In this document: piece by piece, positions 7,876-13,800 of the stretch | Position numbering within the stretch: position 1 is the first letter of the stretch | Layout of the letters: every line of letters starts with the position of its first letter | Source: a virus | Taxonomy: Duplodnaviria > Heunggongvirae > Uroviricota > Caudoviricetes | DNA length: 15,345 nucleotides | Direction: 5' to 3' (one strand) | IMG/VR virus record: IMGVR_UViG_2529292919_000012 | Made by a program: the position numbers

Positions 7876-10800
7876 TCACTTGAGCTGAAGCCAGGCATTC
7901 TCCTTAAGCGACTTACCCGTCAGGCGACGTGCTGCAAGATGCCGCCAGTGCTGGAAATTGACTCTGCATTTAAATTTTATGACGAAAGACTTTGGGTGTT
8001 TGGCCTGACCGGAACGGCGAAAGCCGACAGGCTGATCGAAATATTCGACTACGCTCGCCGCCGATACGGCATCCAGTTATTCATCATCGACAGCCTGATG
8101 AAATGTGGCATAGGCGACGATGACTATAACGGGCAGAAGGCGTTTGTTGACTCGATTTGCGACTTCAAAAACAAAACAAACTCCCACGTCATTCTCGTTA
8201 CTCACTCGCGAAAAGGAGACAGCGAAGAAAAACCAACCGGGAAAATGGACGTAAAAGGCTCTGGAGCGATAACAGACCTGACAGACAACCTTTTCATCAT
8301 CTGGCGTAACAAGGCTCGCGAGAGAGCGTTACAGAGAGTTCAGAGTGGTGAAAAGATGTCAGAGAAGGACGAACAGCTACTGGCATCTCCGGCATCTGTT
8401 TTGATGCTTGAAAAACAACGTAACGGCGAAGGTTGGGAAGGTGGTGTCCCGTTGTTCCTTGACGAGCAATCGCACCAGTTCCTGCAACTTGAATCGGGAT
8501 CGCCATATAGCTACATCGCCAATATGCCGAAATCGGAATATGACGAGTCGTGGCGACAGGAAAACGTGACGGAGTATTAAATGACCATCTACATCACTGA
8601 GCTAATAACAGGCCTGCTGGTAATCGCAGGCCTTTTTATTTGGGGGAGAGGGAAGTCATGAAAAAACTAACCTTTGAAATTCGATCTCCAGCACATCAGC
8701 AGAACGCTATTCACGCAGTACAGCAAATCCTTCCAGACCCAACCAAACCAATCGTAGTAACCATTCAGGAACGCAACCGCAGCTTAGACCAGAATCGAAA
8801 GCTTTGGGCTTGCCTTGGTGACGTTTCGCGTCAGATTGAATGGCATGGTCGCTGGCTGGATGCAGAAAGCTGGAAGTGTGTGTTTACCGCAGCATTAAAG
8901 CAGCAGGACGTTGTTCCTAACCTTGCCGGGAATGGCTTTGTGGTAATAGGCCAGTCAACCAGCAGGATGCGTGTAAGCGAATTTGCGGAGCTATTAGAGC
9001 TTATACAGGCATTCGGTACAGAGCGTGGCGTTAAGTGGTCAGACGAAGCGCGACTAGCTCTCGAATGGAAAGCGCGATGGGGAGACAGGGCGGCATGAGA
9101 CGACAGCGACGAAGTATCACCGACATCATCTGCGAAAACTGCAAATACCTTCCAACGAAGCGCTCCAGAAATAAACGCAAGCCAATCCCAAAAGAATCTG
9201 ACGTAAAAACCTTCAACTACACGGCTCATCTGTGGGATATCCGGTGGCTTAGAGAACGTGCGAGGAAAACAAGGTGATTGACCAAAATCGAAGTTACGAA
9301 CAAGGAAGTGTCGAGCGAGCTTTAACGTGCGCTAACTGCGGTCAGAAGCTGCATGTGCTGGAAGTTCACGTGTGTGAGCGTTGTATATATGAATGCTTAA
9401 ATATGGTGGAACATAATGAGAAATATAAGCAACATAGACGAATTAAGAAATAAATTATCATATGATGATGTTTTAGGTGTACTTAGATGGAAAGTGTCTC
9501 CTTCTAATAATGCTAAGGTTGGCAGTGTTGCTGGTTACATTAGGAGTGATGGTTATAGGATGTTAACTATCGATGGTGTAATTACTTATGCTCACCACGT
9601 TATATGGATGATAAATAATGGTGAGATTCCATTAGGGTATAAAATTGATCATATAAATGGAGTAAGGTCAGATAATAGGCTATCTAATCTTCGATTGGTT
9701 ACACACCAACAGAATGCACAGAACCAAAAGAGAAAAATAACCAATTCGTCAGGAGTGACTGGAGTGTATTTCAATAAAGAGAGATGCAAGTGGATTGCGA
9801 ATATATGCGTAGATGGGCGCACCAAATATCTTGGAATATTTGCTAGCATCATTGACGCTATTGCAGAAAGGAAGAGGGCTGAAAAAGAACTGGGTTTTCA
9901 TGAAAACCATGGCAGACCATAACTGCGCAGAACTGATGAGCGATCCGAATAGCTCAATGTACGAGGAAGAAGACGATGGTGATTAGCCGATACGGAAAAA
10001 TAACGTTTAAACATTTTCAAGACAATCCAACATGGGCGGCTGCGGCTGGATATGACTTTAATTATTTTGATTGTCTGTCAGTCGCATGTATTGCAACTAC
10101 CAATGTTGCTAACAACATAATCGATGAATTCTTGGATTTTCCAGACTATCAGGTCAGAGAGTTGCCTGCATTTTTTGTGAAAGTATCTGTTGCTACAGCT
10201 CTGTTATTTATTTTGTTATTCGCATATCCATTGCTTGCCGTATTTGTTTATGTGAGATGCAAGCACTCACAAAATGAATACAGCGGAGAGCATACCGATA
10301 TTACCAGCCAAAATATGCGAGTGTGGTTGAGGAGATGCCAAGAGAAATGGGGGAGAAGTCATGGCTAACCTACGCAAAGAAGCGCGCGGAAGAGAATGCC
10401 AGGTACGTATTTACGGCATATGCAATGGAAATCCTGAAACTACAGTTCTGGCACATTACCGGATGGCTGGAATTTGCGGAACGGGAATGAAACCTGACGA
10501 CCTGATCGGCGCATGGGCTTGTAGTGACTGCCACGCGGAGATCGACCGACGCACAAGGATTCTCGACAACAAAGACGCCAGACTTTACCACCTCGAAGGC
10601 GTGATCAGGACGCAGGCGATACTGCTGAAGGAGGGGAAGATTAAGTCATGAACGAATATCAGTTTGTGCTTCCATACCCGCCGTCGGTGAACACCTACTG
10701 GCGAAGACGGGGAAGCCAATACTACATCAGCGATAAAGGCCAGAAATACCGAAAAAGACGTTCAGCAAATCATCCGCCAACTTTAGTTAGACATTTTCAC

Positions 10801-13800
10801 CAAATCACGACTCCGCATCAAAGTCATCGCAGACGTTCCAGACTCCCGCCGCCGCGACCTCGACAACATCCTGAAAGGTTTACTCGACTCCCTTATCCAC
10901 GCCGGATTTGCGGAAGACGACGAGCAATTCGATGACATTCGCGTAATTCGTGGTGTGAAAGTACCAGGCGGACGGCTTGGAATAAAAATCACCGAACTGG
11001 AGAACGCATGAACGCCACAATTCAAACGATACTAGAGCTTCTTATCCAGACACGAGGCAATCAGACCGAAGTGGCGAGGATGCTTTCCTGCGCAAGAGGA
11101 ACAGTGCTCAAGTACAACCGAGACAGCAAAGGCGAGCGTCATGTAATAGTTAACGGCGTCCTGATGGTCAAACAGGGCAAGAGGGGAAGACGATGAGACT
11201 CGAAAGCGTAGCTAAATTTCATTCGCCAAAAAGCCCGATGATGAGCGACTCACTACTGGCCACAGTTTATTGGTTTTCGTAACTGAGTCATTTTATTATT
11301 TTATTGCAACTTTTAATCTTTTATAGTGCGAAATAAATGGAGCTGGCATTCATTTCGCACTTTATGTTTTTGTTGGACTTATGTTATTTTGATTGAATTC
11401 AATTCAGTTAAAAAAAGAAGGTGATTGCTCCATTTATAAATGAATAGTCATCCCCTGTCTTGAATTCTGATGTTACTTTATTAAATGCTAGTGTGAAGGC
11501 TACAGGTGCATACCCAATTGTTGCGCCAACTTGATATTCATCAACAGTTTTGTTTAGCGATACTGTTGTTTGTTTCGTCTGTATTGTTTTTCCTTCGAGA
11601 GTATAGTTGCGATTGACATCTCGTCTTTCCATACCTGCAAAAATCTTGTATTTGAATCCGCTTGTATCGGACATATGCATTAAACCACGGGGAGCCAGCA
11701 GACCAAAGCCATTATCCGAATTGAAGGTTTTATCATTACCAATGGCAATGGTTGCGCCATATGCTACATATTGAAATAAGTTTCCAGTAACAGCAGAAAC
11801 TTCAGGGTATAATCCAACATTAGCACCTAAAATATCCATACTTGGTGTCATGGATAGCATCCCTTTTACAGTATAACCGTAGCGATTCTCTATTTGATCA
11901 TCCCATGCATGATATTTTTCTGCCCCAATAATCTCATGAGCTTTATTTTGTACTTTCTGACCGCCTGCGTCGGGGCCAACAACACCTATGTCAGTACCTA
12001 ATCGATAGCGAATCCAGTCATTCGCAAGGGAGTTCCATTCAATACCAGTGTGAGTGTATGCACTAAAAGCTCTGTCTCCAGTTACAGCTGTGTTGTGTCT
12101 TTTATTACTGCCTGATGGAGAGTAAATATCTTGCGCAATATGGAGAGATAATTGGCTCGAGTCTGAGATATCGTGGCTATATCCCAGAAATAAGCCTTGT
12201 GAGTAATCATCTCTGTTTTCATGTTTATTGCCATAAATATCATTAAGTATTGGTTGAAACTTCCCTGCATCATCATTTGCTAATGATAATGCAAGGCTGT
12301 TCGCGATAGCTGAACACGTGGTAAATGACAGAGCAATAAAGACGCCAGCGATGACACTTTTTTTCATATGTTATTGTCTTCCTTTTTTTGAATGGTGCGC
12401 GTATTTTACATACATGAGTTTGTAATACAAGGTGCGTAATCAATATGATGTTTTATAATTGCGTGAGACAATTGATTTATTCGTTTTTTATTGTGGTTTT
12501 TATTATCTTTTAATGTAGCGGTGTTTTTATTAAGTGTGTTTGCGTGGTGTTTTATGTTTTTTATAATTTTTATTTTATTAAATTTAAAAGCATTAGTAAT
12601 GGCTATTCTATATAGCAATATAAGAACTGTTACAAAAAAAGGGGGGCAATTACAGGTAGTTATGGATGATGAGTGAAACAGATATTGGAGAACCGGGGAA
12701 TGAATGATGTCTGAGTCTTATATATCAGAACTCCTTCGCTGTCGCTGGGGGCTCCTGTGCTTATGTCGTTTCCCCGATTCGGTTTTGAACGATTACCGAA
12801 TGTTGAAGAATTATGCCAAAATATAGAAAGGATTTACTGCATGAATACCCAATATTTACAGTATGTTCGTGAGCAACTTATGGCAGCTACTGCTGACTTG
12901 AACGGAGCAACGAAAGGCCAGCTCGAAGCCTGGCAGGAGCATGCACAATTTGATACTGGTACATACAAACGAAAGAAGCCGCGCATTCTGGATGTGGTAA
13001 CTGGCAAGATGATTACGCTGGATAATACGCCGACTTCCGGTAAGCAGTCGTACGCAAAAGGTTCATCCATTGCTTTGGTCAGCCCGGTTGAATTCTCAAC
13101 CTCTTCATGGCGCCGCGCGGTTTTGTCTCTCGATGAACATCAGAAAGCATGGTTGCTTTGGTGTTACAGCGAAAGCGTTCGATGGGGGCATCAGGTCACC
13201 ATAACGCAATGGGCATGGAGCGAGTTTAAAGATTTGTTAAGTAACAGAAAAATTGCAGGTAAGACACTGGATCGCCTGAAGACGTTAATCTGGCTGGCTG
13301 CACAGGATGTGAAGAGCGAACTTGCAGGGCGTGAGGCCTATGAATACCAGACACTGGCATCATTGGTGGGAGTGACAACAAAAAACTGGTCCGAGACATT
13401 TACTGAACGCTGGGTTGCAATGAAGCACATTTTTCTACAGCTTGATAGTGATGCTTTATTGCTTGTGACGAGAACACGTTCAAAACAAAAGGCAGCATTT
13501 TTACAGCAAAATATTGCAAAACTGGATTAAAAGCCATATACTTCATGCAAATTTGGTATGTTGTAAAAAATGTATAAACCCGCTGCCGAGTGGGTTTTTT
13601 TTATGCCCTGAGTTGTACTTGTACGGTAAACATGCTGGCTGCTATGTAATAGAGTTTTTTTAGCCTGTAACCTCTTGACGGCATTGAATTGCTTTTGTTA
13701 TGAGTTGTAAGCCAATGTTATCATCTTGTATTGGGGTGGTTATGAAGGATGGTGCGCTGCTCAGGAGTTCTTCACTTTTTATTGCCTACATGGGATGCCT

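Follow-up and report, generated by a model that had tools for sequence, protein, structure and literature searches.

The nin-region rusA gene of a lambda-like Escherichia coli prophage carries an inherited amber codon and an extra A that is probably a homopolymer miscall

The virus record IMGVR_UViG_2529292919_000012 (Caudoviricetes) is a stretch of 15,345 nucleotides, called the window below, from a decaying lambda-like prophage of the PP2 type of enteropathogenic Escherichia coli (EPEC) O127:H6 strain E2348/69. Its nin region holds a gene for a RusA-family Holliday-junction resolvase (10648-11011, plus strand) that differs from intact rusA alleles at two sites, an in-frame amber codon and one additional A in a short run of A residues. 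The explanation we favor, with a probability of about 0.72, is that this rusA is dead, that the amber codon was inherited from an ancestor of the prophage segment, and that the extra A is most likely a miscall in the assembly. A dead rusA with an internal stop is already known from the RefSeq annotation of E2348/69, and the allele in the window is that annotated pseudogene allele plus one doubtful base.

Two differences from intact rusA alleles

As assembled, rusA is 364 nucleotides long, compared with 363 nucleotides (120 codons) in intact alleles. The original prediction had given the gene the intact length and an end at 11010; the terminator TGA occupies 11009-11011, and the gene is one base longer. 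Translation from the ATG at 10648 gives 36 codons of RusA sequence, MNEYQ...GQKYRK (in full, MNEYQFVLPYPPSVNTYWRRRGSQYYISDKGQKYRK), followed by 59 out-of-frame residues and a TGA at 10933-10935. The rest of the protein is encoded in the second frame, which reads DVQQIIRQL, then the amber codon, then LDIFTKSRLRIKVIADVPDSRRRDLDN and onward to ITELENA. The frame changes after Lys36 at the A5 run at 10752-10756 (plus strand), which has one A more than the A4 of every other sequence seen, and the amber TAG lies at codon 46 (10784-10786, plus strand). Translation and alignment therefore agree with the original prediction that the first 36 codons lie in one frame and the remainder in the +1 frame.

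Among intact alleles, the closest is the 120-residue WP_001008199.1, which E. coli strains such as UTAK-1 and H9Ecoli carry. Aligning the window with these intact genes, a check that the original prediction had proposed, leaves exactly two events, an inserted A and a change of AAG to TAG. Codons 45 and 46 read CTT TAG in the window and CTT AAG in both UTAK-1 and H9Ecoli, so the amber codon replaces Lys46 by a single A-to-T transversion at a position where a sense codon had been expected. Everything else is identical, and the RRRDLDN motif (10847-10867, plus strand) and the C-terminus are intact, as had been claimed. Both lesion calls come from base-by-base comparison with near-identical intact genes, to which a test against chance does not apply.

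The locus belongs to the RusA family. The intact allele matches the RusA profile PF05866 with 62 bits (cutoff, 22.8), and the window's own piece after the TAG scores 35.8 bits. Residues 1-119 of the intact allele are colinear with residues 1-119 of the K-12 RusA structure 1Q8R (E 2.8e-26), and structure 2H8C is likewise colinear, in keeping with the initial assignment of the gene as rusA. The window lacks an uninterrupted full-length RusA frame, because codon 46 is TAG and the assembly has a +1 shift after codon 36. Residues Asp70, Asp72, and Asp91 of RusA are reportedly catalytic. The codons for the equivalents of all three are present in the downstream frame of the window, with Asp70 at 10856 and Asp72 at 10862 within the RRRDLDN motif, 3' of both lesions, and the Asp90/Asp91 pair further downstream in the translation of that frame aligned with K-12 RusA. 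Since all three aspartates are encoded downstream of both sites, either lesion alone would be expected to yield a null allele. Judged from its sequence, the locus is a RusA-family pseudogene rather than a working member of the family.

Distribution of the amber codon and the extra A

The amber codon recurs well beyond the window. Of 846 records matching a 74-base query centered on the TAG, only 4 are exact, and each is a complete O127:H6 genome from the E2348/69 lineage. The records that rank next have one mismatch (98.6%), and the one that was checked, H9Ecoli, carries AAG. The same TAG is present in the nearest virus record (G002), in four IMG/VR contigs found by exact pattern search (L010-L013), one of which is a metagenome-type record, and in three NCBI draft assemblies (L019-L021) reached through the 45-residue truncated product. 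Most short-contig matches to that product were genes cut at contig ends, and only these three drafts were informative. The total comes to 12 other sequences from several projects. In RefSeq, E2348C_RS03655 of E2348/69 is classed as a pseudogene of the RusA family and bears the note 'internal stop'. Because the TAG recurs in independent assemblies, including the finished E2348/69 genome, we take it to be a real, inherited substitution that is fixed in this lineage, and the original prediction is upheld in its reading of this codon as a genuine substitution in an inactive gene. A further alternative, in which the amber codon too is a mistake of assembly and the organism has an intact rusA, has next to no probability; nothing was found in favor of an artefactual TAG, and its recurrence over independent assemblies refutes one.

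The extra A is distributed differently. A 69-base query across the run had no exact match among 927 complete-genome records, and the best matches agreed at 68 of 69 positions across a 68-base subject span, which corresponds to A4. All nine of the TAG-carrying comparators that were read at the sequence level (9/9) have A4, and no gene for the 95-residue frameshift product was found elsewhere in a large assembly collection, from which the window's own record may have been absent.

Two comparisons of related sequences point to base-calling as the source of the additional base. When six sequences are aligned over 6.76 kb, four one-base indels (at 10752, 12383, 14045, and 14195) and one substitution (at 9880) prove private to the window, and the other five sequences combined have two private indels and three private substitutions. 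The second comparison covered positions 7660-13780 of the window in five assemblies with the same single-nucleotide polymorphism (SNP) pattern, namely the window, G002, and the three NCBI drafts. These assemblies differ at 2 SNP sites versus 6 homopolymer-length sites (10752, 11410, 12358, 12382, 12484, and 13595), and the gene calls of the sister drafts are broken up differently from one assembly to another. Sites 11410, 12382, and 13595 group the assemblies in incompatible ways and fail the four-gamete test. Random length miscalls are favored because a clonal tree cannot account for these groupings. The extra A thus shows the signature of a homopolymer miscall: it is private, it sits among sister assemblies that differ mainly in run length, and the length differences fit no tree. 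On this evidence, the extra A is quite probably a consensus homopolymer over-call in a draft assembly. The original prediction had counted two independent lesions, and on this point it is not borne out, given that the A is private to the window assembly and that the sister assemblies differ mainly in homopolymer lengths.

Several considerations weigh against this explanation. The case for an artefact comes from the comparison of assemblies and falls short of a demonstration. A run of only four A residues is short for such a miscall; the other discordant runs are 5 to 8 bases long. The argument also rests on small numbers, with four private indels against one or two private substitutions. Moreover, genuine slippage in a neutral pseudogene would be indistinguishable from a miscall at a single site.

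The alternative that follows from these considerations is that both lesions are real, with a genuine +1 slip in the A4 run having occurred as part of pseudogene decay after the inherited amber codon had killed the gene. Among spontaneous indels, slippage in homopolymers is the most frequent kind. The prophage in the window also has a private disruption that goes beyond any base-calling error, an insertion of an IS21-family insertion sequence (IS) in its primase gene that has no counterpart in the comparators, and one of the window's private run lengths, the A6 at 14195, is also found in further complete genomes, in which the gene bears the annotation 'frameshifted'. We nevertheless regard a real slip as unlikely, though it deserves to be taken seriously. 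The A5 is seen in no other sequence, including the four assemblies of identical SNP pattern, which differ from the window and from one another mostly at homopolymers and in a tree-incompatible manner, and the window has private indels and private substitutions at 4:1 over the 6.76 kb, a ratio far above that of real E. coli divergence. The extra A, whether a miscall or a slip, would have no functional effect, because the gene was already dead.

A different possibility is that the gene is expressed by recoding, through a +1 slip on CGA-AAA-A combined with readthrough of the amber codon by a suppressor tRNA. The exact native sequence ...YRKDV... would be restored if tRNA-Lys slipped by +1 on AAA-A. 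However, the A5 is conserved in no relative, which rules out a programmed site; a tRNA gene search of the window found none; and no stimulatory element was seen, although none was searched for. Two inefficient events in series would leave negligible product, and the form with A4 and TAG is a pseudogene in RefSeq. Recoding was rejected on the grounds that the A5 is unconserved and that the window has no suppressor tRNA gene, and its likelihood is vanishingly small.

Consequences of the amber codon and decay of the prophage

Returning to an inherited amber codon in a dead gene, we propose that an A-to-T change in an ancestor of the prophage segment converted the Lys46 codon AAG to the amber codon TAG. 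Translation would stop after 45 residues, ahead of Asp70, Asp72, and Asp91, and no resolvase would be made because termination precedes all three catalytic aspartates. The loss would have been tolerated because rusA is dispensable and further intact RusA genes are present in the lineage. Should the extra A be real, it would have arisen very recently, by a slip of no consequence in a gene already inactivated.

The gene is not needed for phage growth. The E2348/69 chromosome (NC_011601.1) has five RusA-family loci (L014-L018), which lie in different prophages. A stop is present in just one, at 737061; the other four are open, and one of these matches the intact allele with 100% identity. With E2348/69 taken as a proxy for the strain from which the window derives, loss of this copy should cost nothing, and we presume that it was neutral. 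It is possible, given that the amber allele sits beside two different immunity modules, that it is more than neutral debris, and that loss of this RusA copy, or a polar effect of early termination on the coupled ninH and the downstream Q region, is mildly favored in hosts with several RusA-bearing prophages, but we consider this very improbable.

The surroundings of rusA are those of a standard lambdoid prophage nin region. Open reading frames, Pfam matches, and the annotation of matching records give the order ninB-ninE-ninF-...-ybcO-rusA-ninH-Q. Upstream of rusA is ybcO (10361-10651, plus strand), which encodes a putative nuclease of the DUF1364 family (PF07102, E 1.2e-43), and downstream is ninH (11008-11196, plus strand; PF06322, E 1.1e-22). 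The stop of ybcO and the start of rusA share an ATGA at 10648-10651, and a second ATGA at 11008-11011 joins the two genes that follow, with the rusA terminator overlapping the ninH ATG at 11008-11010. These overlaps suggest translational coupling across ybcO, rusA, and ninH. If that is the case, early termination in rusA might reduce translation of ninH, although that gene has a GGAG upstream of its own.

Other parts of the prophage are also damaged. The lambda-type Q gene is reduced to a stub of 29 codons (11193-11282) that adjoins an lpxR cassette. The IS21-family element, at approximately 5529-7483, splits a gene for a toprim/primase-helicase (4741-8580) and contains istA (6374-7396, minus strand) and istB (5595-6377, minus strand). 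This insertion in the primase gene was not found in E2348/69, G002, or the four IMG/VR contigs. G002 bears a near-identical copy of the element elsewhere in its record, interrupted by approximately 1.26 kb.

Additional differences of one base or of one repeat unit are scattered over the window. A gene for a hypothetical membrane protein of 247 residues (WP_001302581.1 in E2348/69) at 13715-14458 is split. The split results from an added T at 14045, which lies outside any homopolymer and was found in none of 682 complete-genome records, and the same gene has A6 in place of A7 at 14195. The lambda-type cI gene is frameshifted at 2874-2885, where the window has T6 and A6 and L010-L012 have runs of 7; G002 shares this state, which makes a miscall less certain here, and its adjacent run is also off by one base (T4 versus T5). 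A 21-bp in-frame tandem repeat, GGTGGGGCAGGAGCTGCCCGG, lies at 4148-4168 within a gene at 3857-4633 that is annotated in E2348/69 as 'helix-turn-helix domain-containing protein'. The copy number of this repeat varies, with G002 having one copy more than the window and L010-L012 one copy fewer.

The biological weight of these findings is small, in that they add one more inactivated accessory gene to a decaying prophage whose lineage has other intact RusA copies. Of more practical value is the warning that differences of one base in homopolymers are unreliable in the window, and that pseudogene calls resting on them alone need to be confirmed with reads. The calls affected concern two frameshifts, in rusA and in cI, and the split gene for the 247-residue protein, and the caution extends to homopolymer-based pseudogene calls across all five drafts, that is, the window, G002, and L019-L021. 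The rusA stop codon, being based on a substitution, can be trusted.

Comparison with related prophages and RusA proteins

The closest known counterpart of the locus is the E2348/69 pseudogene E2348C_RS03655 (NC_011601.1, 737061-737423), whose neighbors, ybcO, ninH, the Q stub, and lpxR, are those of the window. Its rusA sequence has the TAG at codon 46 and is identical to that of the window except for the extra A; unlike the window, it has A4 and no frameshift. The two prophages differ elsewhere. The E2348/69 prophage has another immunity region, which is unmatched to positions 1-3369 of the window, and it lacks the IS21-family insertion. The nin region with the TAG-bearing rusA is found beside a lambda-type immunity region in the window, G002, and L010-L012, and beside the other type in E2348/69 and L013. 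Because the segment adjoins two different immunity modules, the amber allele has survived at least one mosaic exchange. Literature searches on the PP2 prophage of E2348/69 and on the DEC draft-genome collection turned up nothing useful.

The gene for WP_001008199.1 in the UTAK-1 and H9Ecoli prophages represents the intact state of the same locus. At the DNA level it departs from the window only by the two lesions, having 120 open codons and Lys46, and it occupies the same position in the nin region, between ybcO (DUF1364) and ninH. The rus gene of phage HK620 belongs here too, with 98.6% DNA identity. A more distant relative is the K-12 RusA of the DLP12 prophage (PDB 1Q8R, 2H8C, and 2H8E), a diverged homologue that aligns colinearly over residues 1-119 and has in common with the intact allele the family, the length, the RRRDLDN motif, and the DD pair. 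The K-12 rusA gene is itself intact yet silent unless activated.

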